DNA from: a virus
Taxonomy: Duplodnaviria; Heunggongvirae; Uroviricota; Caudoviricetes
Reading direction: 5' to 3' (one strand)
Length of the DNA stretch: 64,000 nt
IMG/VR virus record: IMGVR_UViG_3300032030_000019
Shown here: in pieces, positions 1,001-58,199 of the stretch
Position numbering within the stretch: position 1 is the stretch's first letter
Layout: each line of letters opens with the position of its first letter
Notes under the pieces: model-generated
Seen by the model: only the letters and a program-made list of their open reading frames with translations
The model's database searches: none
Told to the model about the DNA's origin: nothing
Program-made: the position numbers and the translations under genes

Positions 1001-1237
1001 TTAGTTCCATAAATCTTCCGACTCCCAACCCTGATGTAAGTGCATTCCTAACAACGTTTGAAACGTAAACCAAAGTGAGGCGTTACGTGGACCCCCATTT
1101 AACGTTTCACCAACAAAACATAAATTTTCCTGATGGGGCATACAATACAGACATTTAACCCGATATCTAGTCATATGTGATGTCAATACATCTATCGTGC
1201 ATGTATCCCCAACGTTTACATCATACTTTATCCCCAT
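1001..1237 (-). CDS. hypothetical protein (78 aa)
   Basis: minus-strand ORF; start ATGGGGATAA overlaps upstream stop by 10 nt. Confidence 0.4.
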   Translation of the reverse strand: MGIKYDVNVGDTCTIDVLTSHMTRYRVKCLYCMPHQENLCFVGETLNGGPRNASLWFTFQTLLGMHLHQGWESEDLWN

Positions 1238-1539
1238 ACGTCTGAATCACCAATGTTGTTCCACACGTAGGTCTGAAGTTTGGTGAGATTAGTATGCATG
1301 TTTTCAGCTAAATCCCAGTTCGTACCTTCGCACAAAACGACTTGAGAGTCATCATCTACATAATTATATAGTGCCTTAAACTCCCACTCATCTATTACGG
1401 CGAACCTATGTGGACTTTGTGCTAACTTTACTTGGATAATTCTACGTGTATCCCCTATACATAAAGTCCTATTTTTGCTCATTGTATTATTCCGCATTGA
1501 CGTAACGTGAAGAAGAGAACTACAATGCCAAATATACAA
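1228..1539 (-). CDS. hypothetical protein, 'D-x-D-x-W-G' tail family
   Basis: C-terminal ...GDSDVWG shared with 4905..5189 and 1656..1889; true start probably the internal Met at about 1482 (MSKNRTL) coupled by ATGA to a small upstream ORF. Confidence 0.4.
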   Translation of the reverse strand: MYIWHCSSLLHVTSMRNNTMSKNRTLCIGDTRRIIQVKLAQSPHRFAVIDEWEFKALYNYVDDDSQVVLCEGTNWDLAENMHTNLTKLQTYVWNNIGDSDVWG

Positions 1540-1628
1540 CCAGCCAAAATAAGTCTAGCTATATCAGCGGTCCCATCTTTCTCACTATCACTTTCAGGAA
1601 ATAATTCGATTATATACTTTCGTCCCAT
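1480..1628 (-). CDS. small membrane peptide (49 aa, below the ORF-track cutoff)
   Basis: manual translation: MGRKYIIELFPESDSEKDGTADIARLILAGCIFGIVVLFFTLRQCGIIQ; one TM helix; stop overlaps the next ATG (ATGA). Confidence 0.25.
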
Positions 1629-1655
1629 ACACGCCTCCAACGTTTACATCATAAT

Positions 1656-1889
1656 CTAATCCCATATATCCCTGTCATAGCTGAATTGCCCCCAACGGTA
1701 GGTATTAAGTTTGGACTCGTCACTATAGGCGTTACCACTTAAATCCCACGAGGCGGGTTCACACCAAGTCACAAGACCAAATGTATATTCATATTGAACT
1801 AAAGCCTTGAGTTCCCAGAAATTCTCTACTACAGGTGCGACGTTGTGTTTTACTCCACGTATTATCTGAATATCACCAATGTCCATCAA
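1656..1889 (-). CDS. hypothetical protein (77 aa)
   Basis: ORF in the one-strand gene chain; C-terminal ...YDRDIWD resembles the D-x-W tail family. Confidence 0.4.
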   Translation of the reverse strand: MMDIGDIQIIRGVKHNVAPVVENFWELKALVQYEYTFGLVTWCEPASWDLSGNAYSDESKLNTYRWGQFSYDRDIWD

Positions 1890-2431
1890 ATTATTTTACA
1901 TTGGCACGAACGCATAACCTCAAGTGCAGCCTCATGTTTTTCCTTCGTTAGCCCAGCACACGCATCGGCCACGATAGTTACGTCCACACCTTCGATGGCT
2001 TTTATGGCCAACGCATTGGAAACGACGCAAATGTCAGTGCACGTACCAACCATCGTAACTGTTGAATGCGGCTCAATGAATGCACCCCACTTATCATATC
2101 CGAAGTGGGATTTATTGAGAATTGTATCATCTAACATAGGTGCCAACTCTTTTGTAATCTCCCAACCTTTAGTCTGATAGAGACAATGCGGCACAGGAAG
2201 ATACGTACCCTCTAACGTATTCAAATAATCTTCCTTGTGCGTGTCACGTGTGTAAATAATGTGATCACCACGTTTACGCGCCTCGCTTAACAACGTTTTA
2301 ATTTTGGGGATAATCTTCACTGCGTCCTCATTTGCGAGTGCCCCCGTTGTAAAATCGTTCTGCATATCAATAACCACAAAATATGCAGACGGTGTGTTTT
2401 CCTTTTCACTGCTTACTTTTTTTGTAAACAT
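1886..2431 (-). CDS. pncA: nicotinamidase / isochorismatase-family hydrolase (PncA-like)
   Basis: VVIDMQNDF (D-x-Q-N-D-F), DTH, catalytic-Cys motif VGTCTDICV; start set at the internal Met (MFTKK) with GAAGGAG SD right after the nadD stop. Confidence 0.75.
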   Translation of the reverse strand: MFTKKVSSEKENTPSAYFVVIDMQNDFTTGALANEDAVKIIPKIKTLLSEARKRGDHIIYTRDTHKEDYLNTLEGTYLPVPHCLYQTKGWEITKELAPMLDDTILNKSHFGYDKWGAFIEPHSTVTMVGTCTDICVVSNALAIKAIEGVDVTIVADACAGLTKEKHEAALEVMRSCQCKII

Positions 2432-12087: not shown

Positions 12088-12314
12088 ACCTCCGAGTCAA
12101 AGCTAAAGCCCGGATTGTAATGTGAGCGTTGTAGATTCATATGAAAATCGAACGTTTCATTGAACTCCAGGATAAATGACGAGCGGTTTTGATAGAGTAA
12201 GACGTCAATGTAATTACAATAAATGTAATAACAACCAAAGACGCCCTCTCCATCCTCAGACATGCTACGGCACAGATAGGAGTTACCAATTACGTTAGCG
12301 ATCACGTTTGTCAT
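12081..12314 (-). CDS. small protein, NPG tail family (YNPGFSFDSEVW)
   Basis: same tail; GGAGGTG SD and a TGATG overlap with the next gene. Confidence 0.5.
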   Translation of the reverse strand: MTNVIANVIGNSYLCRSMSEDGEGVFGCYYIYCNYIDVLLYQNRSSFILEFNETFDFHMNLQRSHYNPGFSFDSEVW

Positions 12315-13422
12315 TATTGCAACGTGAGCACAACATTTGGCAATTTTCTTCCACAGTACGTCCGCCCTTTGACCATGGCACTACGTGATCACCTTGCATG
12401 TCCTCAAACGTAAACTCACCACCACATATAGCGCACTTATGCCCCTGACGTTCATACATACGTCTCTTCATTTGTTCAGGGAACGTACGTATGGATAAGT
12501 ACTTCTCATCGTGAGTTGTACGTTCAGACAATATGTACGGAATTATACCTGTTTGTTTAGTTACATCCTCATCCATAACCAACTTATTTATGGTTTCACG
12601 TAATTCATTTGTGTTATATACGTGGCCATGATATTTGTTATAGAGTGTGCCCCAATCCTGATTCTCCGTTAACTTTTTCGGTACGTCAGGGAACATACGT
12701 TTGGCCCACGATATAACCTCTTGAAAGTACAACCACAATTCGTTGGCATCCACGTCATGCTGATGTAGGGCCATGTACTGTTCCAACGTTATGCCGTCAC
12801 GTTCAGCTATCCACGTCAATGCCTTTTCCAAATATTCCTGACGTATGGAGTTCGCCTTTACATACCCGTCTGACATTTGTGCCGCAGCGCACCCACGTTT
12901 ACTGAAATAACGTTTGGCGTCTGAGATGAACGTTCCGGCATACGTAGCGTTTAACAATTCTTGGTTTGTTAATGGTACACCTGCAATGTTTATAATCTTG
13001 AACCATGCCAAACGTTCCTCTGTTGTACCCTCACATATGTATACTGTAACCTCGTAATCAAGTATACGTTGCTGCTCAGTTTCGGTAAGGTTACGCATGT
13101 ATTTTTCATGTCCGTCAATTTTAATAGGGTACATATTCTCCAAATACTGACCTATTGAGATCGTACGTTGCTGTCCATCAATAACCTCATATTCTGAGTC
13201 TGACACTTTTGACCAATACATCGTGTTCAATGGGAAACCATTGTAAACTGAATTAATGACAGCTCTACGTTGTTGATCGTTATACACAAACTCACGCTGA
13301 TACATGGGGCGTACAGTTAACTTATGATCAGCATTGTAATACGTGAATACGCCATCATCTTTAAGATCTATATACCCCTCACATAGATCTCGTACTTTAA
13401 TTTTTGCTTCTGTTATCTTCAT
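12295..13422 (-). CDS. DUF262 (ParB/GmrS-like, DGQQR motif) + C-terminal HNH endonuclease fusion
   Basis: YQREF...VIDGQQRTISIGQYL (DUF262 hallmark) and C-terminal HKCAICGGEF...GDHVVPWSKGG...NCQMLCSRCNNDK (HNH); 26-nt overlap with the upstream methyltransferase. Confidence 0.7.
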   Translation of the reverse strand: MKITEAKIKVRDLCEGYIDLKDDGVFTYYNADHKLTVRPMYQREFVYNDQQRRAVINSVYNGFPLNTMYWSKVSDSEYEVIDGQQRTISIGQYLENMYPIKIDGHEKYMRNLTETEQQRILDYEVTVYICEGTTEERLAWFKIINIAGVPLTNQELLNATYAGTFISDAKRYFSKRGCAAAQMSDGYVKANSIRQEYLEKALTWIAERDGITLEQYMALHQHDVDANELWLYFQEVISWAKRMFPDVPKKLTENQDWGTLYNKYHGHVYNTNELRETINKLVMDEDVTKQTGIIPYILSERTTHDEKYLSIRTFPEQMKRRMYERQGHKCAICGGEFTFEDMQGDHVVPWSKGGRTVEENCQMLCSRCNNDKRDR

Positions 13423-23739: not shown

Positions 23740-25062
23740 TTATCCAGCTGGGAATACAACCTCAAACTGTTTATATGGGCATGTATCCATTATATTGTTT
23801 GTCAGAACAACAGTCTTGTCTTCAAACAACACAGGACTCCAATCAGTATAATTGTCTGTCATAATAACAATCAAATCAGGATCCATTCTATGGTCCTGTA
23901 CATATACGCTGATCGCACCCATATCTGTACCACCACCTTCTGTAGTAAGCACTTCGCTTTGACATACATCAAAGTCCTGTATTACACGACAAACAGCAGT
24001 GTCACATTCAAGGATAGTGACTTTAATCTCAAGATCATCGGAATCAGCTATTGATTTCATAATTCCATACATCTTTTCGGTTAAGCCACTCATACTCCCC
24101 GACACGTCCATTCCGATGACAAGATTTAATTCAGTGACATAATCTACACGTGCCGGATAAATTATGTTTTTAATTAAGCCTTGTAGTCTACGATTAGGTT
24201 TTCTGAATGTTCTATGCTCGAATCCATACTGCATCTGTGATGACTTCGTATGTAGCACAGCCTTGAATACATCCTCCCAATTGTAGACAATCTTTTCCAC
24301 TTTTTTCAATGCATCGCTCGGATTAGAACCCTTTCCTTGGGCTTGCGCTGCCGCGGATTCACATTCGCCTCTGAGCTTCTGCACGGCCGTCGTGGTTTTT
24401 CCATCCTTGTATCCTTTCATGCTTATATCCATACCATCAGGACCTAATGGTACACCTAATGGCACACAGTTCTTACACTGTGGATATTGGCTAGGATCGA
24501 AAGGCATAGGAATAGGATTCCCATTCGCATCTTTTGGACAATTCTTGCAATCTTTACAAGAAGATGCAGATTGAACCAAGAGTTCCAAATACTCCTCATA
24601 AGTTCGATACTCAGGGAACGGCCGACCATCCTTCAGCTTGTAATTACTTGGCATTTGTGGTGTTCTATGAGGATACTCAATATACTGATTTATCTCCATA
24701 TCTGCCGCAATATTATGCACGAGAAAATTTACATCCTGACGTGGGCTACGTTTGATACGCGTATGATGATCAAATATATAATGCATTAATTCATGCAGTA
24801 TATGACCACACAACTCTTGACTCACGACATTCTCTTTATCAGTGTTTGTCATTCCCGTACCTTGAGGCTTATACTTTTCATAAAGTTTCTTTACATATTC
24901 CCTATTAAAAGAATACTCAAGGTTCGCTGACATCGCACCTGTATCGAGTGTTTCGTTGTCTTCCGCATAGCGCATCTGTGTAATCACAGGTCCGTAAAAA
25001 GGATGATCTTTCGCAATCTTTCTCAAGGCAACCATGATCATATCGATTACTTCATCGACCAT
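23740..25062 (-). CDS. von Willebrand factor A protein with N-terminal HExxH metallopeptidase-like region (DUF2201-like), MoxR partner
   Basis: HILHELMHYIFDHH (HExxH), MIDAS motif LVIGMDVSGSMSG (DxSxS), adjacent to an AAA_5 ATPase. Confidence 0.7.
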   Translation of the reverse strand: MVDEVIDMIMVALRKIAKDHPFYGPVITQMRYAEDNETLDTGAMSANLEYSFNREYVKKLYEKYKPQGTGMTNTDKENVVSQELCGHILHELMHYIFDHHTRIKRSPRQDVNFLVHNIAADMEINQYIEYPHRTPQMPSNYKLKDGRPFPEYRTYEEYLELLVQSASSCKDCKNCPKDANGNPIPMPFDPSQYPQCKNCVPLGVPLGPDGMDISMKGYKDGKTTTAVQKLRGECESAAAQAQGKGSNPSDALKKVEKIVYNWEDVFKAVLHTKSSQMQYGFEHRTFRKPNRRLQGLIKNIIYPARVDYVTELNLVIGMDVSGSMSGLTEKMYGIMKSIADSDDLEIKVTILECDTAVCRVIQDFDVCQSEVLTTEGGGTDMGAISVYVQDHRMDPDLIVIMTDNYTDWSPVLFEDKTVVLTNNIMDTCPYKQFEVVFPAG

Positions 25063-39194: not shown

Positions 39195-42100
39195 CTACCC
39201 TGCAAGTAGCTTATTAGCAATATCTACAGGATATATTTTTGATGGATTATCACGTATATGAAGACTCTGTTTATTTTGAGCCTTCTCCTCATCATCCTCC
39301 ATTCCTGGTATTAAATGTTCATCCCATCGCTTTACCTTGTCAAAATACGATGGAATACCCAATGGCTTTGTTGCAGTTTCAATACCACGTACGTGACGAT
39401 TTACCTTAAATTTTACAGTACGTATATACGGACTCAAAAACTCAGGATAATCACAAATATAATGTGGTTTCGCACGTGGCCCACCTGTTGGGTTCTTAAT
39501 GAACTCGCCGATAGGATCCACTAACCCTTTATCAGGATTATCCGTTATCTCATCCTCAAGTATTGTAATATCAGGCTCAGTCAAATATGTAAAGACATAA
39601 TCCACAGAACCTTTTGGACCTGAGATCTTACCTTCCATTGTCTCAACATCAAGAGAATACGACATATGCTCACATGAATTGTACAAAATATCCAAGTCAT
39701 ATTTAAAGTCGATGCCATACTTCTCGAAAATGTACTTGCGGAAGTAGTTGCGATAACATATGTCGGCTTCAAACAAGTCACGTATAGGCAAGTTATTCTG
39801 ATTTGAGTCATGTATAACGCTTTCAGCACTAACGTCAATATCCAACGCACGTATGTTCATAATAGACAATTCAAAGCCCTCGTTCGCAACAACAGACGCA
39901 TTTCCCTGATTACCATAATTAACGGCCGTCGTAAATGCGTCGTCTTTGTCTCCATGTAAACGATCCCCTAAGAACGTTTCAATTTCACCCGTTTGCTGTA
40001 AATAATGAAGTTTGTGCTGACGTAAACGGTCAACTTCCCTCCACGTACCAAACATAGCACGCTTCATCTCTGTCACACGTTCCGTAGTTACACCCGCACG
40101 TGCAGCTAACCCTGCATCTCCTTGCCCATATATCGATGAAATCATACATGTTTTGGCAATCCCTCGATATTTAGCTTTAAAGTCGGGGTCGTTAACGTGA
40201 TCAGGCCACGTAATCTTCGCAAGCTCCATATACGCATCTTTGCCTGAGTTGTATATATCCATAAATACAGGATCATGGGATATATAACAAATTGAACGTG
40301 GCTCCATTTGTGATACGTCGAAATACGTTTTTATACGTCCTGGCTCTACGATAAGGCACTTCATTGTGTCGCTGTGTGGCAAGAACGTATGGTAGCCTGA
40401 CGTACATCGCTTTGTTGCCAACGTATTCATCGCGAACGTTGGCACATACGTATCTTTCGGACCATTATCAGAAAAATAGCCTGAATGTACACCTGGATAA
40501 AAGATCTTATGTTTACCGTTAAGTATGTTTTTCAGGTACGTATTCAGCTCTTTACTTGCTACTGACGCAAAATCCGTAAGAAAGCCAAGTTTTGCAAGAA
40601 GTTGGTACGTATCATCAGGAAGTTCAGTCGTCATATTGTTACGAGGTTCATCAAATAAATACTGAAAATATTCCTCAGCAAAAGTAACCCCGTCGCTAAT
40701 AAACTCCTTTTTCCATACGGCTGGCTCACGTTTCATAATAGACACACGTCCACCTTCTTCGCGTGAGTAGTAACTTCCTATTTCTACTTCAGGCATAAAC
40801 AAGTCTAATGCATCTGACTGGTTCAGTAAGTCTATTTTACTTTCAAAGACGGTTAGTAGTTCACGTATCTTTTCAGGTGTACGTTCGACATTGTTCGCCT
40901 TGATGTATTGCCACGTAGAGTACATAACAAGATAGTTATCCCTATATTCGTGTTTCAACATAGCACCGAAGATCTCAGGAAATTGATCGTTCGAGCTGTA
41001 CTTACATACTTTCTCAAAATACAGCTTATCTCGTCCTTCATAGATTGTACCAACGAACGGGTCCTCTGTTACACGTATATGTTCATCAAATCTTGTAATT
41101 TCTTCAGCACACGCACGTAAACGCAAATAACGATATGCGGATATTTCAGGATGTGTAATGCCGTCAAACTCCTCTGCAACAGCTTTAGGCACAATAGTAG
41201 ATAGATCGAACTGTAAATAGTAATCATCATCTAAATCCCGTAAATCATAAACCTGAGCAAGAGTGGATACCTGTTTCTTGGGTTCAAATATGGTCACCTC
41301 ATTATGCACTTCCTCCAATAACCATCTCAAGTTATTTTCAGGTATGTCTTCCGCAACACCATGAGTCGTTACACCCAAATCTATACTCACTTTCTTAAAA
41401 CGTGAACATAACGTATCATATAACGTAACCGTCACATCTTTCTTGCCCCTCTTCGTTTGCGCCTCAATTTTCGTCCCGTACTTTTTATACCATGCACGTG
41501 CAACATCGATTGCGATCCATGCGTCTTCCATACGTATATACTTTTGTAAAGGCGACCACATATACGTTAAACCTGCGTTCTTAATATACTCTTTTAACGC
41601 AATATAAACGTCAGCCACTATAAATCGATTAAACGACTCCACAAGTTCAGACAAATGTATCATAGTCTGTATAAACTTACCGATAGGTTCAGCTGTCTTT
41701 TTCTTACGTGTATACGAATCAAGCCCCTGTGACATAGCTTCTTCGTCTAAAACAGAAGAAACCTCATCACTTACGTCATATCCGAACATGTCATTCAAGA
41801 ACGTACTCGGAATATTCCAGTCAGGCTTTTTCGGACACAGTCTTCCTAACAGTATCTTTGTGATCTTCATTGGATCAGCTTGGCATACCTCAGGATATTC
41901 GGCTATAATACGTAAAGTCTGTTTAGGTATCTCGATTGTACACCACTTATTCTGCTTCATATACGAACGTAGGAAGATCTTATTCAATAAAATCTCGTAG
42001 TTACTACATATGTTTTGGCAATATTTCGCATACTTTGTGGCTTTCTCAACATCTACCTTGATCCCTGACATTTTTAATTCCATGCCCAGATATTTATTGA

Positions 42101-43319
42101 ACAAGAACACAGGATAACAGTTAGAACCGTAAGCGGGGAATAACTTCTCTGCCAATTTCACACCATAAAAGGCATCATAGCAGCAATATACACCCAGTTT
42201 TTCAGGATCACAAGCATACCAATCAGAATACTCATCCCAATAGTTGCTAAGAAGGTTAAAGAGATGTCCATTGTTATTTTTTACATCCTGTACGTAAAAT
42301 TCGCATGCATCAATATACGTTTGTGGCAATTTCTCTTTCGGATCCAACACCTGTCTTACGTTATCCTCTTGATCTAAACAGAAGTACAACGCGGACTTAA
42401 ATGAAGCAAACGTAGGATGCTGCGCACGTATGGCTTTTATGTATGCCTGTTCAGTACTCAACGTATCATTCCATGATGGTGCATGTAGGTAATACTGTAC
42501 GTTATACTTAAGTGAGTGTTTTTGATCGTCAGCTGTTGTAAGGGCGTACGCATCCTGAATGTAGTAGAAACGTTGGTACATTCTGTACAGAACCATCATT
42601 TCAAACGCACAGTTATACGCCCATACGTTTGCAGCATGCGTATCCATATATTGTTTGAACTTAATCATGAATTGTGACGCAAAGAACATACTGTCAGGTG
42701 TTTGTTTGGACTCATCGTAATCGAAATCCTTACGAAAATCAAAGAAATATGCGGTATCTTTAAGTGATAACGCAAATCCTGAAATCCTAAAATCCTCATC
42801 TTCAGGAAATCCAGCTGTCTCAAAGTCCAATCCTACCCACGTAGTTTTATCGGGCATAAATACTGTCTCAATTATACGTGTGCCTTCCTTCAGCCCAACG
42901 CAAATCGTCTCAGGCAAGAACGTATGTCCACCTTCCACCCCATCAGACAAGAAGTATGTGTATTTTGAATCCACCAATACATCCTCATCTACGGAAGGTT
43001 TGGTTCCAAATACGAGTACGTTCTTGCCTATATGGATTGACGGTAGGGCTGTAAATGAGGCATATGTAAACTTACGTAAACCTATGTGTATTTTTAATGC
43101 CCGATGTAATTCCAATAGTTTATCATATATTTTACGCCCATACGCAAGGAATACGTTATTCTCAGACGTTTGTATTAAATTAAAAAACGTATCCTCATCT
43201 ATCAACTCAATTGTACCCTCAGGAAGAGTTGAATAATGATTTTTAATTCCTCGATGTAAACCTTGTTTATCTTTTACAATATAGCGCATGTTATAATCCT
43301 TTAGAAAAGTTGTGAGCAA
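39195..43319 (-). CDS. family A DNA polymerase with 3'-5' exonuclease domain (1374 aa)
   Basis: Exo I motif GLDFETAG; motif A DVSQMEPR; motif B RGIAKTCMISSIYGQG (R..AK....G..YG); motif C VIHDS. Confidence 0.85.
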   Translation of the reverse strand: MLTTFLKDYNMRYIVKDKQGLHRGIKNHYSTLPEGTIELIDEDTFFNLIQTSENNVFLAYGRKIYDKLLELHRALKIHIGLRKFTYASFTALPSIHIGKNVLVFGTKPSVDEDVLVDSKYTYFLSDGVEGGHTFLPETICVGLKEGTRIIETVFMPDKTTWVGLDFETAGFPEDEDFRISGFALSLKDTAYFFDFRKDFDYDESKQTPDSMFFASQFMIKFKQYMDTHAANVWAYNCAFEMMVLYRMYQRFYYIQDAYALTTADDQKHSLKYNVQYYLHAPSWNDTLSTEQAYIKAIRAQHPTFASFKSALYFCLDQEDNVRQVLDPKEKLPQTYIDACEFYVQDVKNNNGHLFNLLSNYWDEYSDWYACDPEKLGVYCCYDAFYGVKLAEKLFPAYGSNCYPVFLFNKYLGMELKMSGIKVDVEKATKYAKYCQNICSNYEILLNKIFLRSYMKQNKWCTIEIPKQTLRIIAEYPEVCQADPMKITKILLGRLCPKKPDWNIPSTFLNDMFGYDVSDEVSSVLDEEAMSQGLDSYTRKKKTAEPIGKFIQTMIHLSELVESFNRFIVADVYIALKEYIKNAGLTYMWSPLQKYIRMEDAWIAIDVARAWYKKYGTKIEAQTKRGKKDVTVTLYDTLCSRFKKVSIDLGVTTHGVAEDIPENNLRWLLEEVHNEVTIFEPKKQVSTLAQVYDLRDLDDDYYLQFDLSTIVPKAVAEEFDGITHPEISAYRYLRLRACAEEITRFDEHIRVTEDPFVGTIYEGRDKLYFEKVCKYSSNDQFPEIFGAMLKHEYRDNYLVMYSTWQYIKANNVERTPEKIRELLTVFESKIDLLNQSDALDLFMPEVEIGSYYSREEGGRVSIMKREPAVWKKEFISDGVTFAEEYFQYLFDEPRNNMTTELPDDTYQLLAKLGFLTDFASVASKELNTYLKNILNGKHKIFYPGVHSGYFSDNGPKDTYVPTFAMNTLATKRCTSGYHTFLPHSDTMKCLIVEPGRIKTYFDVSQMEPRSICYISHDPVFMDIYNSGKDAYMELAKITWPDHVNDPDFKAKYRGIAKTCMISSIYGQGDAGLAARAGVTTERVTEMKRAMFGTWREVDRLRQHKLHYLQQTGEIETFLGDRLHGDKDDAFTTAVNYGNQGNASVVANEGFELSIMNIRALDIDVSAESVIHDSNQNNLPIRDLFEADICYRNYFRKYIFEKYGIDFKYDLDILYNSCEHMSYSLDVETMEGKISGPKGSVDYVFTYLTEPDITILEDEITDNPDKGLVDPIGEFIKNPTGGPRAKPHYICDYPEFLSPYIRTVKFKVNRHVRGIETATKPLGIPSYFDKVKRWDEHLIPGMEDDEEKAQNKQSLHIRDNPSKIYPVDIANKLLAG

Positions 43320-54435: not shown

Positions 54436-54630
54436 TTAAATTTTATATTCTTTTCGGTCCTCGAACTCTTGTGCTCTACCTTTGTTCCAATTTTTAATAG
54501 CCCGATAATACCCAACGATGCGAGAATATACCTCGGTCTCTTGGTCTCTCTTGCCATCAAGTATGTCTTTACGTCGTTGTTCTAGATCGGCTAAGCGATC
54601 TGTAAGTTCTTGTTTACTTGCTACTCGCAT
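54436..54630 (-). CDS. nrdD: glycyl-radical domain of NrdD encoded as a separate, overlapping ORF
   Basis: SRIVGYYRAIKNWNKGRAQEFEDR matches the RxxGYxxxxxxxNxGK glycyl-radical tail of NrdD, but lies in the -1 frame, overlapping the nrdD stop by 10 nt. Confidence 0.6.
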   Translation of the reverse strand: MRVASKQELTDRLADLEQRRKDILDGKRDQETEVYSRIVGYYRAIKNWNKGRAQEFEDRKEYKI

Positions 54631-57600
54631 TTGTTTGTTTCCTCCATTTCTCGTTTCTGAATAGCTTCTTTAACTTCACGAATTTGAGCATCCACTCTTG
54701 CAAGCTCCTCATCCCGACATTTAGGACAAAATTTTTGTTCACCATCCAAATATCCATGTTTGGGGCAAATAGAGAACGTTGGTGAAATCGTTAAGTATGG
54801 AAGTCTGTAATTAGTAAAAATTGTTTTTATAAGTTCAGCACACGCTTTCCAGTTGTGTATCCGTTCGCCTAAGTACGCATGAAACACAGTTCCACCTGTG
54901 TACTTTACTTGAAATTGATCTTGGATATCAAGAGCCTCGAAAATATCATCAGTAAAAGTAGCAGGTAACCAAGTGCTATTGGTATAATACGGATCTCCAT
55001 TATCATTTGCTGTGATAATATCGGGGTAGTTTTTCTTGTCATGTAAAGCAAATCGATACCCAGTACCTTCAGCAGGGGTTGCCTCTAGATTAAACAATAA
55101 ACCAGTCTCTTCTTGAAAATCAGATAACCTTGAATTAATGTAATCCATTAGTTCGTTTGTAAAGGCTTGCCCCCATTCATCAGTAATATCATGCTCGTCA
55201 TTAGTGAAGTTTCGTATACATTCATTGCATCCATTGATACCTATTGTATTAAAGAAGGTGTCATAAGACTGAACATAAACTTTACTGTACGGATAGAATT
55301 GTCCTTCAAGTAACTCTTCAATGGTCTTCCGCTTGATTACTAGAGACTCTTTGGCCATAACCAAGAGACAATCAAGCTCTTTATAGAACCCCTCTTTATC
55401 TCCCTTGAACCTATAGCCAAGTTGTGGTAAATTAATTGTAACAACACCAGTAGAACCAGTTTTTTCAGCAGCTCCAAACAGACCACCACCTCGCTTCATT
55501 AACTCTCTTTTATCGAGTCTGAGTCGGCAGCAATTATGTGTCAAGATATTATTAGCATAGAATGTATGTCCTAACGACTCACTTTGATTATAATCGTCGG
55601 GAGAGTCAACTTCAAGATCATAAACTAATCCATCATAATCAATCAGCTCGATAGATACTATTTCATCTCTATAATTGATGTAACCACGATATGAATCGTC
55701 ATTATTGCTTGGATCGAATACCAAAAGATTGTATCCTGCATTACGAATAACCTGATTCCAAGGCTTCTTTACGTATGGGGAATCCTCAATCTCATCATTA
55801 TAGTAACAATGTGTATCTCCTGAAAAATTAGTCTCTAATTCTATTACTAAATTCTTTGAGGGGATATAGAAATCCGCGATCCCAGTAAAGTTGCCATTAG
55901 AATCATTAATAACAAACTGATGCTTATACTCAAGCCCCAATGCGTCCAACTCTTTTCTGAATTTAAATTCCCAGTCAGAAGCTATGGTTGTGTGCCCATT
56001 AGTTTCTTGAACATGATCCCAATAGCCTTGTGAATGGATTGGGTTATTGGCTTTCCATCGTTCACTAGACGCTTTTCGACATTTTTCGCTAACTGGATGC
56101 CCCATACTAGTTTGTGATATTTTTTTCATGCGTTCACGGTTTTGTTCATCGGTCATGGTACGCATAGGATTGCTATTTCCTTGCCATCTACCAAGTCTTT
56201 TATTTCTATCGGAACACTTTTGTCGATAAAGTTTACCTTTTTCTTCACCGAAACGCTCTTCACATGTTTTACCACGATTCTTGTTATTCCACAACTGAAT
56301 AGTATTTTTCTCATATCTAACAGAGAATTTATCGCCAACTTTTAAGTCTTTTGCTTGACGAATGATCAATGATTTATCATTCTTATTTCTTTCTGCATAG
56401 ATTAAGTGCGGATGATCTGGTGTTGTAATGAGAATTTTACCAGATTGAGTTGTAAACTTGTACATCTTTCCAGAATACTTGATAACTATTTTCCTCTTGA
56501 TCGGATAGTATCCCCAACGTGTGAGAACTTTAATTTCATTCTCATCATAGTTATCGAATATATTCTTAATAGAGTCCTCTTCCCACTTACCATCTGGATT
56601 CAGAATTCTGATAACGGTATCAGGCATTATACACATGCTTCTTATATCACTTGGGCTTAGATCAGAATTGATGAAGTTCTGGAAATAAGGCATACCATAT
56701 TTACATGTTATTTCAAATAGCTTCTTGGCATTTGATGATTCCCAATCGAAATCCTTAGTTATGGAGTAAGTACAGATTGGGTAACTGTACAATCTGCCAT
56801 CTGCATCGCCCTTCTCGAACAAATCAAGAAGAACTTCATTAAACATATCCATCTCTTTCTGACAATCTTTATACTTGAAATCTACTTGTTTTCCACCGAC
56901 CCAACAATATGTTTCTGCTAAATCATTAGGAACAATCCAATCTAGAGTAAAGTTACTGAAGGGTGCTTGACTATTCGCCGATATAAATTCATGTCCATTA
57001 ATGTCTTGAAAGAATACTACGCCATTATCTGTTGTAGGGCACCAAACTTCTCCGTCATAAGGTATTTTCTCGACCTCAACTGGAATATTTATACGCTCAA
57101 TAGATTCAAATTTCGAGGTTAAACCAAACCCCTCATCTACGCTTAATGGAACAGTAAAATTAGCCTCTTCATCTAAGAACTCATATGCTCTGTGAATTTC
57201 TCCGTTACCAGTATATACCCGATGCTCATATGATACTATTTGCTCATAATTACAGTCTTTGTTATATAATTTAATCAAGAACTCTTTATCATTAAGCTTC
57301 CGAGTTATTTTCTTAACTGAGTTAAATTCAACTTTACGAGTCTTAGGATTTACCGTATATACCACATCTCCGATCTTAACTTCAGAACACTGTTTCCAAC
57401 CATCCTGTGTTAAGAGTCTTGTTGAGATCGGTACACACCCCCATCTACTACTACAATTGAGACCAAACAAAAGCGACTGAACACATTGATAAACCTCTTT
57501 GCGAGAAAGGTTATCTATTTTTATAAAAGGAGCCACATAAGTATCAACACTAGAATACGCCATGGCTCCAGAATTTTCGTTTTGTAGTAGGCCATTGTAG

Positions 57601-58199
57601 TTAACTAGCTGATTGAAGAGTGTGCTTAAATGCTTAGCTGGTTTTGATGTTATTTTGCCGGGCACACCACCAATACCTTCCCTGATTAAATCTAGGAAAT
57701 TATGTCCAACGCAATAACATGCCAACATACTTAAGTCATGTATATGAAACTTGCAAGCTCGATGTGCATCGCCTATCTCTTTGGGATATATCTTATTCAA
57801 CCAGTAGTTAGCCGTAACAGCCCCACTATTATTGAGAATCATCCCACCAAGTGAGAAACCCACAGACGCATTCTCCTTAACACGCCAATCACTTTCGTCT
57901 AGATATTTGTCAACCAAGTCTATCGGACGTATGCTACGTAACTGCTCACGATTATACCGATATTTGATGTATGCACGAGCGACGTTAGGATTGTACTTCA
58001 TCAGAACTTCTTCTATCATATCCTGAATCTGTTCTACGTTCATTTTGTCTACGAGCCTATCCTCTAATTCATGAAAAACAAAGTTTCCCATCTCAGGCTC
58101 ATTTGTTGCATGGCAGGCTTTATCGACGGCATCTTGTATTTTCAGACGGCTAAATTCGACTTCTCTACCATCACGTTTAATAACTGTTTTTAATTCCAT
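54621..58199 (-). CDS. nrdD: anaerobic (class III) ribonucleoside-triphosphate reductase NrdD precursor interrupted by two inteins
   Basis: N-terminal ATP cone; NrdD blocks (YSSVDTYVAPF, SQAPFSNFT, CCRLRLD...GGGLFG) and a C-terminal Zn ribbon; exteins total about 670 aa. Confidence 0.9.
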   Translation of the reverse strand: MELKTVIKRDGREVEFSRLKIQDAVDKACHATNEPEMGNFVFHELEDRLVDKMNVEQIQDMIEEVLMKYNPNVARAYIKYRYNREQLRSIRPIDLVDKYLDESDWRVKENASVGFSLGGMILNNSGAVTANYWLNKIYPKEIGDAHRACKFHIHDLSMLACYCVGHNFLDLIREGIGGVPGKITSKPAKHLSTLFNQLVNYNGLLQNENSGAMAYSSVDTYVAPFIKIDNLSRKEVYQCVQSLLFGLNCSSRWGCVPISTRLLTQDGWKQCSEVKIGDVVYTVNPKTRKVEFNSVKKITRKLNDKEFLIKLYNKDCNYEQIVSYEHRVYTGNGEIHRAYEFLDEEANFTVPLSVDEGFGLTSKFESIERINIPVEVEKIPYDGEVWCPTTDNGVVFFQDINGHEFISANSQAPFSNFTLDWIVPNDLAETYCWVGGKQVDFKYKDCQKEMDMFNEVLLDLFEKGDADGRLYSYPICTYSITKDFDWESSNAKKLFEITCKYGMPYFQNFINSDLSPSDIRSMCIMPDTVIRILNPDGKWEEDSIKNIFDNYDENEIKVLTRWGYYPIKRKIVIKYSGKMYKFTTQSGKILITTPDHPHLIYAERNKNDKSLIIRQAKDLKVGDKFSVRYEKNTIQLWNNKNRGKTCEERFGEEKGKLYRQKCSDRNKRLGRWQGNSNPMRTMTDEQNRERMKKISQTSMGHPVSEKCRKASSERWKANNPIHSQGYWDHVQETNGHTTIASDWEFKFRKELDALGLEYKHQFVINDSNGNFTGIADFYIPSKNLVIELETNFSGDTHCYYNDEIEDSPYVKKPWNQVIRNAGYNLLVFDPSNNDDSYRGYINYRDEIVSIELIDYDGLVYDLEVDSPDDYNQSESLGHTFYANNILTHNCCRLRLDKRELMKRGGGLFGAAEKTGSTGVVTINLPQLGYRFKGDKEGFYKELDCLLVMAKESLVIKRKTIEELLEGQFYPYSKVYVQSYDTFFNTIGINGCNECIRNFTNDEHDITDEWGQAFTNELMDYINSRLSDFQEETGLLFNLEATPAEGTGYRFALHDKKNYPDIITANDNGDPYYTNSTWLPATFTDDIFEALDIQDQFQVKYTGGTVFHAYLGERIHNWKACAELIKTIFTNYRLPYLTISPTFSICPKHGYLDGEQKFCPKCRDEELARVDAQIREVKEAIQKREMEETNKCE
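55533..56633 (-). mobile_element. intein 2 (367 aa) in NrdD with embedded Vsr/DUF559-like (PD-(D/E)xK) endonuclease
   Basis: starts CIMPDTVIRIL, block B TTPDHPHL, ends VYDLEV...GHTFYANNILTHN followed by Cys +1 at the CCRLRL active-site region; internal WEFKFRKELDALGLEY...GIADFYIPSKNLVIELE resembles DUF559. Confidence 0.75.
56973..57437 (-). mobile_element. mini-intein 1 (155 aa) in NrdD
   Basis: starts CVPISTRLLT (block A), TxxH-like block B (SYEHRVYT), ends YDGEVW...NGHEFISAN followed by Ser +1; parallels the end of intein 2. Confidence 0.65.

Follow-up and report, generated by a model that had tools for sequence, protein, structure and literature searches.

A phage NrdD intein with a predicted in-frame homing nuclease of the Vsr/DUF559-like fold

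What kind of endonuclease lies in the second intein of a phage ribonucleotide reductase gene, and could it make the intein mobile? Endonuclease domains of inteins are nearly always of the LAGLIDADG type and now and then of the HNH type. The gene in question lies in a 64,000-nucleotide stretch of DNA from a Caudoviricetes virus (IMG/VR record IMGVR_UViG_3300032030_000019), which we call the window. It is a 1192-residue open reading frame (ORF; 54621..58199) that Pfam and NCBIfam assign to nrdD, the large subunit of class III ribonucleotide reductase (RNR), and it holds two inteins; all window features described here lie on the minus strand. The original prediction, made from the letters of the window, gave the second intein (intein 2, 55533..56633) a Vsr/DUF559-like nuclease of the PD-(D/E)xK type, a rare one in inteins, in place of LAGLIDADG or HNH. 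We read intein 2 as a mobile class-1 intein with an in-frame NUMOD3 plus Vsr/DUF559-fold homing nuclease whose active site is modified, and we give this reading a probability of roughly 0.7.

The limits of intein 2 were confirmed to the codon, the predicted first and last codons being exact. Its 367 residues run from Cys523 of the precursor (56631-56633) to Asn889 (55533-55535), followed by Cys890, and the 1192 codons of the precursor contain no stop, so that a single frame crosses the intein. The splicing residues comprise Cys1 (Cys523), a block B of sequence TTPDHPH (residues 592-598), His888-Asn889 and the +1 Cys890. Intein 2 is matched by the hidden Markov models (HMMs) TIGR01445 (expectation value, E, of 3.6e-10) and PF14890 (7e-13). 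The TIGR01445 intein_Nterm match marks the N-terminal splicing (Hint) lobe (56289..56633; residues 523-637), whose strands span intein residues 7-105 in the model; the C-terminal splicing lobe (55533..55667; residues 845-889) ends in ...ILTHN. An AlphaFold model of the whole intein reached a predicted local distance difference test score (pLDDT) of 84.7 and a predicted template modelling score (pTM) of 0.73. Foldseek with this model returned 23 intein or Hint-domain structures at E<=1e-3, among them the gp41-1, RadA, TFIIB and RecA inteins and the hedgehog autoprocessing domain. Intein 2 is thus predicted to be a class-1 intein with a Hint fold, splicing-competent by its intact splicing residues. 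Base composition was considered as a sign of foreign origin and rejected, since the GC content of the intein (35.5%) differs little from that of the extein (38.4%).

Intein 2 interrupts NrdD at SM|CCRL, one residue ahead of the thiyl-radical cysteine of the finger loop. In the extein pair Cys890-Cys891 (55527..55532), Cys890 is the +1 splice nucleophile and Cys891 aligns with Cys290 of phage T4 NrdD, which we took from NC_000866 and whose numbering we checked on the zinc cysteines C543/546/561/564 and on Gly580. The T4 loop reads ...SPMG-C290-RSFL... and the loop of our phage ...RSM-C-C-RLRL.... Because the T4 M-x-C-R matches SM-C-C-R in the phage, Cys891 probably corresponds to the thiyl-radical Cys290, an equivalence that rests on this motif, as the local alignment begins 26 residues downstream and the loops differ in length by four residues. 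The predicted position of the intein at the RNR active site agrees with this alignment, the +1 Cys890 directly preceding the radical Cys891 (C290 in T4 numbering).

An insert of 213 residues (638-850) separates the splicing lobes, at the place where endonucleases are usually inserted into the Hint fold. Both models predict roughly 100 helical residues, which are followed by one helix, three strands and a further short one, two more helices, and lastly one strand and one helix. The first part (55992..56288; residues 638-736), helical throughout in both models, is a linker with three degenerate NUMOD3-like repeats that are predicted to bind DNA; we read the corresponding helices at about residues 642-670, 672-699 and 700-720. 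NUMOD3 repeats are helical and of the type G-K-x-H-[ST]-x-E-x-[KR]-x-K-[IM]-S; the query intein itself has no PF07460 (NUMOD3) match in a Pfam scan. NUMOD3 matches were found in four of seven members of its clade, the best at 6.2e-6, the clade being defined as the query plus six NrdD inteins at the same site. In the word-indexed protein search the clade profile A2 retrieved about 30 NUMOD3 proteins, at E down to 2e-11, with architectures that include NUMOD3+GIY-YIG and NUMOD3+DUF559; it brought back no clade members. PDB profile searches placed the DNA-binding domain of I-TevI (1I3J) on the insert's N-terminal part at E 0.018 to 0.11. These comparisons suggest a NUMOD3-type DNA-binding module. 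The basic segment SMGHPVSEKCRKASSERW (residues 698-715), quoted in the original prediction as a Cys/His segment, is present and belongs to the conserved element KGH.VSENC[KR]K.SSERW.G.NNP. It is part of the NUMOD3-like repeat array, and because it has one Cys and one His only, it forms no zinc site.

The second part of the insert is the Vsr/DUF559-like PD-(D/E)xK nuclease domain (55668..55991; residues 737-844), which includes the other peptide quoted in the prediction (WEFKFRKELD...VIELETNF, residues 743-792). Searched as a single sequence, the insert had no match among proteins in the word-indexed search or, by tblastn, among 50,697 phage records, and the Pfam and NCBIfam matches were confined to families of inteins and of the extein. 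PHROGs matches of the query are weak, the best being phrog_22215, whose function is not known (1.8e-7). The family came to light only with an exhaustive phmmer search of the 213 residues against 1.84 billion representative proteins, which yielded 22 proteins at E<=1e-3. Six of these are NrdD proteins with the same kind of intein at the ...S[MF]|C...N|CCRL site (35-46% identity), and P0010 is a 109-residue fragment of another such NrdD intein. The remaining matches are free-standing proteins of 150-440 residues, those with NUMOD3 plus DUF559, MTES_1575 or Vsr scoring at E 1e-5 to 1e-3. When ten free-standing relatives were scanned with Pfam, eight matched DUF559 (seven past the cut-off), with further matches to MTES_1575 and mostly to Vsr; five matched NUMOD3. 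Among the other clade members, curated HMMs gave one match to DUF559 (E 0.051) and one to PvuRts1I-like_N (0.02). By sequence comparison, the similarity of the insert to free-standing NUMOD3 + DUF559/Vsr proteins is well above chance.

Profiles extended this to known structures. Profile A3, built from the seven intein inserts and the ten free-standing relatives and run against all PDB sequences, matched the catalytic domain of I-Bth0305I (3R3P) at E 1.4e-11, a DUF559 protein (3HRL) at 3.1e-7, PvuRts1I (4OQ2) at 1e-5 and AbaSI (4PAR) at 1.5e-3; with this profile 1I3J scored 0.018, on the N-terminal part. Profile A4, made from the nuclease domains of the seven clade sequences alone, again ranked 3R3P first across the PDB (E 0.078). 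The crystallised I-Bth0305I bears D196A and H213A; when the clade nuclease was aligned by hhalign to the wild-type domain, the probability was 86%. The helices (H) and strands (E) predicted for the domain, numbered from the start of the intein, are H220-231, E237-243, E249-257, E262-266, E276-278, H279-284, H291-298 and E302-306, and the modelled nuclease part follows the alpha-beta-beta-beta-alpha-beta order of the PD-(D/E)xK core. Foldseek, proposed with the original prediction as a check, returned PD-(D/E)xK structures for the nuclease model, AbaSI and PvuRts1I first, 3R3P eighth and Vsr eleventh, with marginal E-values. As the core is present and the structures nearest to it belong to the Vsr-like clade (Vsr, DUF559, MTES_1575, RAP, PvuRts1I), we regard the assignment of fold and homology as solid. 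The predicted nuclease type is supported by the PD-(D/E)xK core and the 3R3P match, and neither Pfam and NCBIfam nor the sequence and fold searches of the PDB gave a LAGLIDADG or HNH match.

The active site of I-Bth0305I consists of D196, E206 (Vsr F62), N208 (Vsr H64), H213 (Vsr H69) and D222 (Vsr D97), with Asp196 at the position of Vsr D51 (PMC3239194). Three acidic residues of the insert are invariant in 24 aligned sequences: Glu744 (intein E222; 55968..55970) in helix alpha1, Asp776 (intein D254; 55872..55874), a predicted metal ligand equivalent to D196, and Glu787 (intein E265), equivalent to E206; Glu744 is likewise invariant in the alignment of 17. D776 and E787 supply the conserved acidic metal ligands of the Vsr-like clade, an Asp on beta2 and a Glu on beta3. 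The latter belongs to Glu787-Leu-Glu789 (55833..55841), in which Glu789 (intein E267) stands where I-Bth0305I has N208 (Vsr H64); six of seven clade members have Glu there and the seventh has Gln. Lys782 and Asn783 are invariant across the clade as well. Further along, Asn801-Asp802 (intein N279, D280; 55794..55799) places the Asn opposite the putative general-base His213 in hhalign and in the alignments, giving a clade pattern of D...ExE...N[D/E]. A histidine four residues before Asn801 (His797) occurs in the query sequence only.

The EDxHD class of I-Bth0305I, to which the prediction had assigned the nuclease, is characterised by NUMOD repeats N-terminal to a Vsr-like domain (PMC3239194; PMC2677866). 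The insert shows this bipartite layout, and it has Glu at the Vsr-F62 position (E787) and Asp at the Vsr-D51 position (D776). The catalytic His is absent and with it the full motif. We therefore regard the domain as homologous to the EDxHD enzymes but leave it outside the class in the strict sense, because the position of the catalytic His is Asn (Asn801 in the query) clade-wide. The same qualification applies to the DUF559/Vsr core pattern that had been noted: similarity to the domain holds, whereas the expected IE.DG reads IELET and the His that follows is not conserved in the clade.

If the domain had lost its use, would it still be conserved? Within the clade, mean pairwise identity is 34% in the nuclease domain and 38% in the NUMOD part, compared with 32% in the N-terminal and 49% in the C-terminal splicing lobe. 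The insert is constrained no less than the splicing machinery. The same type of intein occupies the SM|CC site in NrdD proteins whose exteins share only 36-55% identity with the query. In two other carriers of this intein type, P0002 and P0004 (contigs L026 and L027), nrdD is spread over two to three ORFs. We rejected these as natural split inteins after reading the DNA, which has single frameshifts in the Hint lobe. The frameshifts lie inside the Hint lobe and the extein, and the L026 contig has a coverage of 2.2x; the broken ORFs are probably sequencing or assembly errors and possibly decaying genes or pseudogenes.

A search with the spliced extein identified an allele that lacks intein 2. 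The 821-residue protein P0056 is 88% identical in amino acids to the spliced extein, keeps intein 1 and reads ...SDVRSMCCRLRL... uninterrupted. Its contig, L030, is 82.7% identical in nucleotides to the window over the spliced gene and 92-94% in 150-nucleotide windows near the insertion point; across the intein 2 junction itself, 83 of 90 nucleotides agree. Exactly the 1101 nucleotides of intein 2 are absent from L030 (...AGCATG|TGTTGC...). Intein 2 is thus a clean presence/absence polymorphism, and the L030 junction is a putative homing site, which in the P0056/L030 type reads GATGTAAGAAGCATG|TGTTGCCGTCTTAGACTC or, in longer form, ...GATCTAAGCCCGAGTGATGTAAGAAGCATG|TGTTGCCGTCTTAGACTCGATAAAAGAGAG.... 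Four of the seven differences from L030 are synonymous third-position changes in the first 12 nucleotides downstream (within 55485..55532; TGC TGC CGA CTC in the window, TGT TGC CGT CTT in L030). Looked at post hoc, this cluster just 3' of intein 2 may be a short co-conversion tract or drift of the target site.

A further close relative, P0057 (L031 5001..7469), has no intein 1 and carries a different intein of 157 residues, lacking an endonuclease, in the same finger loop. The junctions are ...VRAM|CPIPGD...LITKN|CRLRL, and the spliced product would be one residue shorter (AMCRL compared with SMCCRL). We considered whether this could be intein 2 after deletion of the endonuclease and rejected it, as BLASTP revealed generic block-B likeness only (E 0.012). 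Because P0057 bears an unrelated mini-intein in the same loop, the finger loop is an intein hot spot in this phage lineage.

Several observations weigh against a mobile intein with an active nuclease of this kind. The query alone matches no nuclease family in Pfam, NCBIfam or PDB sequence searches, and PF04480 (DUF559), PF03852 (Vsr) and PF18741 (MTES_1575) give no match to it at E<=1; the nuclease assignment is therefore transitive, and based on profiles and models. The Foldseek values are marginal, the best being 1.1e-3 (probability 0.99), and the alignment behind the model included DUF559 homologues, so the fold search depends in part on the sequence evidence. In the active site, all seven clade members replace the His of Vsr and I-Bth0305I by Asn, with Y-x-N-[D/E] for Y-W-H. 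D222 has no clear counterpart: hhalign sets Tyr809 (intein Y287) opposite it, and a column that is Glu in five of six relatives is Lys811 (intein K289) in the query; acidic residues D802, E803, E805 and D806 lie one helical turn ahead of this Lys811/Tyr809 region, which is variable. Identity of the inteins to the query (37-46%) is about that of the exteins (36-55%), which vertical descent with occasional loss would fit too. Palindromic symmetry of the empty site is not above background, unlike that of the I-Bth0305I target.

The alternative that survives best takes the insert as Vsr-like by descent and catalytically dead, a DNA-binding or structural remnant in an intein that is inherited vertically or mobilised in trans by other endonucleases of the phage. 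It draws on the clade-wide change of His213 to Asn, the lack of conservation at the Asp222 equivalent, the failure of the query to reach any curated nuclease HMM and the similar divergence of intein and extein; the free-standing HNH endonucleases that the window also encodes would suit mobilisation in trans. We nevertheless consider it unlikely. Members that share only 24-51% identity in the domain all keep E744, D776 and E787, and E/Q789, K782, N783 and N801 are conserved among them. Conservation of the domain matches that of the splicing lobe or exceeds it, the intein has not shrunk to a mini-intein, and the 88%-identical relative has a precise empty site. Cleavage without the His is plausible by analogy: other PD-(D/E)xK enzymes can be active with Glu or Gln as the third catalytic residue, as in BamHI (D94/E111/E113) and BglII (D84/E93/Q95), whose sites follow the D...ExE and D...ExQ patterns. 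We therefore favour an active homing nuclease as a likely prediction, the missing His being the main doubt.

A second alternative, that the nuclease comes from another PD-(D/E)xK lineage such as T7 endonuclease I-like or classical D...ExK restriction-enzyme-like proteins, seems to us improbable. It takes support from P0009, P0011 and P0019, weak phmmer matches that carry an ExK motif; P0009 and P0011 are the two of the ten scanned relatives that match Phage_endo_I instead of DUF559. The joint profile also picks up T7 endonuclease I chains, at E 0.1-0.2, PDB phmmer with the query gave a marginal match only, to 3k93, a 'phage related exonuclease' (E 0.06), and the ExE pattern is closer to the classical enzymes than to Vsr. 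The profile and structure matches given above lie with I-Bth0305I, DUF559 and their neighbours. A divergent LAGLIDADG or HNH endonuclease is refuted as far as HMM, sequence and fold tools reach and has a negligible probability, as the one weak PHROG match in its favour (phrog_559, 'HNH endonuclease', E 1.5e-4) covers the NUMOD linker and the start of the nuclease, not an HNH motif.

Given a mobile intein 2 with an in-frame homing nuclease, we propose the following course. The NrdD precursor would be translated through the insert, consistent with the one open frame. The Hint domain would then cut out the 367-residue intein and join ...SM to CCRL..., restoring the radical-Cys finger loop, as the splicing residues suggest. 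By homology to I-TevI and I-Bth0305I, the freed intein would bind an intein-less nrdD through its extended NUMOD3 helices, and the nuclease would cut near the insertion point by metal-ion catalysis involving Asp776, Glu787 and Glu789. During co-infection, repair from the intein-bearing allele would copy the 1101 nucleotides into the empty site; such copying is consistent with the precise presence/absence polymorphism.

How did such a nuclease come to lie within an intein? Most likely, a free-standing phage gene for a NUMOD3-Vsr-like endonuclease entered the intein and was later fused in frame. In viral contigs, the 24 relatives that were found all stand as genes of their own, mostly with zinc-finger and NUMOD-like N-termini and a canonical DFYIPSKN..IE.DG.YWH; one has ExK and one ExQG. 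A fractured radical-SAM gene in contig L032 (4001..6479) has a first ORF composed of N-extein, the N-terminal intein half (IntN), NUMOD3, a canonical DUF559 nuclease and a stop. The second ORF overlaps the first by 20 nucleotides (ATGGAGTTGAAGAGGCTTAA) and encodes a 40-residue C-terminal intein half (IntC), then an extein with CPFGCKYC (CxxxCxxC). In the model of Dassa et al. (2009), re-fusion of an endonuclease gene with an intein is step IIIa, a hypothetical end state (PMC2677866). L032 is a half-fused state between the fractured genes of that study and the fully in-frame intein 2, and a single frameshift in it would yield the intein 2 architecture.

The window, which belongs to a 133-kb contig of JGI metagenome 3300028888, carries a phage replication module. 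Its genes encode a DNA polymerase, a DnaB-like helicase and an ATPase, and two further genes are for free-standing HNH endonucleases. The nrdD ORF matches Pfam NRDD (8.7e-144), ATP-cone (4e-20) and Intein_splicing as well as NCBIfam PRK08270 (1.6e-272). Removal of both inteins leaves an extein of 670 residues, whose closest cellular relatives in the extein search are the NrdD proteins of Treponema and other spirochaetes (56% identity). Intein 1 (56973..57437; residues 255-409) is a mini-intein of 155 residues that carries no endonuclease, at the site ...SRWG|C...SAN|SQAPF. It is also present in P0056, with 87-93% nucleotide identity in 150-nucleotide windows across it, and is missing from P0057 and from every more distant carrier of intein 2, which makes it a second presence/absence polymorphism within nrdD.

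The glycyl-radical C-terminal domain of NrdD (...YSRIVGYYRAIKNWNKGRAQEFEDRKEYKI) is encoded by a separate 64-residue ORF in another frame (54436..54630), which overlaps the end of the 1192-residue ORF by 10 nucleotides (nrdD stop at 54621..54623). Contigs L030 and L031 have the same layout, with a 63-residue NRDD ORF and a 14-nucleotide overlap; P0003 and P0005 stop short of the domain, and P0002, P0006 and P0007 carry it fused. Because the layout recurs in L030 and L031 and the domain also lies outside P0003 and P0005, we take the separate ORF not for an assembly error but for a natural split that has been conserved, or else for a programmed frameshift.

The two free-standing HNH-type ORFs lie at 12295..13422 and 23740..25062 and match PHROG HNH families at E down to 8e-34; the phage thus has several selfish nuclease genes in addition to its inteins. 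The DNA polymerase PHROG matches of a 1374-residue ORF (39195..43319) are confined to residues ~990-1170. In L030, a 415-residue RRXRR+HNH endonuclease gene (1035..2282) lies a few kilobases upstream of nrdD, and its flanking ORFs adjoin in the otherwise syntenic L031, so this free-standing endonuclease is a presence/absence polymorphism as well.

What would intein 2 add to what is known of inteins? We put forward tentatively, at somewhat less than even odds, that with the NrdD intein clade a third kind of endonuclease fused in frame to inteins, after LAGLIDADG and HNH, is described for the first time: a NUMOD3-tethered Vsr-fold nuclease from a captured free-standing gene, which is active despite its D...ExE/Asn site and adds a new catalytic type to the EDxHD lineage. 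The searchable literature, which covered open-access papers only, yielded no account of a Vsr-like intein endonuclease in frame. A Thermosynechococcus paper lists a 'DUF559-containing gene' among intein genes and does not state whether DUF559 lies within the intein, so that it can be neither counted nor dismissed as a precedent (PMC9403480). If our proposal is true, inteins repeatedly recruit any free-standing phage endonuclease that lands in them. Intein 2 would fill the place of the end state that the model of gene fracture and re-fusion has so far lacked, and L032 gives a half-fused intermediate. Loss of the His throughout the clade, with the acidic triad kept, raises the question of how these nucleases activate water, and the 88%-identical relative P0056/L030 offers a natural substrate. 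A compact nuclease with tethered NUMOD helices in a self-excising intein may be of some interest for endonuclease engineering. No broad principle is altered by one rare family, seven NrdD-intein proteins among the 22 matches in 1.84 billion representative proteins.

Among known systems, I-Bth0305I (3R3P; Taylor et al. 2011) is a free-standing ORF in a recA group I intron, whereas the nuclease described here is part of the intein polypeptide. Its His213 and N208 are Asn801 and Glu789 in intein 2, and it has NUMOD2 and a helix-turn-helix where intein 2 has NUMOD3-like repeats. I-Bth0305I is an established dimer with a target of ~60 bp (PMC3239194).

The fractured genes of Dassa et al. (2009) likewise associate Vsr-like nucleases with inteins, in genes of phage nucleotide metabolism that include RNRs interrupted close to the radical Cys, and some of their endonucleases also have tandem NUMOD3 N-terminal to the nuclease (PMC2677866). 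There, a split intein has the endonuclease between its halves as a gene of its own that starts and stops independently, whereas intein 2 runs IntN-NUMOD3-nuclease-IntC in a single frame. This layout fits the hypothetical step IIIa of that model, and NrdD is absent from the hosts of that study (PMC2677866). The full actinobacteriophage inteins with antisense VSR-like endonucleases are contiguous like intein 2, and their endonuclease region encodes a Vsr-like nuclease related to 3R3P (bioRxiv 10.1101/2025.01.02.630785). In those cases the nuclease is a separate protein encoded antisense and the in-frame stretch has no recognisable fold, whereas the nuclease of intein 2 is in frame. The same preprint states that VSR-like endonucleases had previously been reported with split inteins only, adds the antisense full-intein cases and speculates that indels could put such genes in frame (bioRxiv 10.1101/2025.01.02.630785).

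Proteins of the DUF559/Vsr/RAP/PvuRts1I-AbaSI group (3HRL, 1CW0, 4OQ2, 4PAR) are the best structural matches and share the core motif E...Q...DF..P..NL.IE. In these proteins ExD(G)..H is followed downstream by an Asp, and Vsr further has intercalating Trp residues and a zinc site; none of these is evident in intein 2. The members of this group act in repair or restriction or bind RNA, and none is an intein domain. The LAGLIDADG and HNH inteins (PI-SceI, PI-PfuI and phage inteins that carry HNH in frame) have the same layout of a Hint domain with an in-frame endonuclease at the same point of the fold, and the same predicted role in homing. Intein 2 differs from them in the fold and chemistry of its nuclease, which are unrelated, and in its tethered NUMOD helices of the type seen in phage GIY-YIG, HNH and EDxHD enzymes, which take the place of a saddle.

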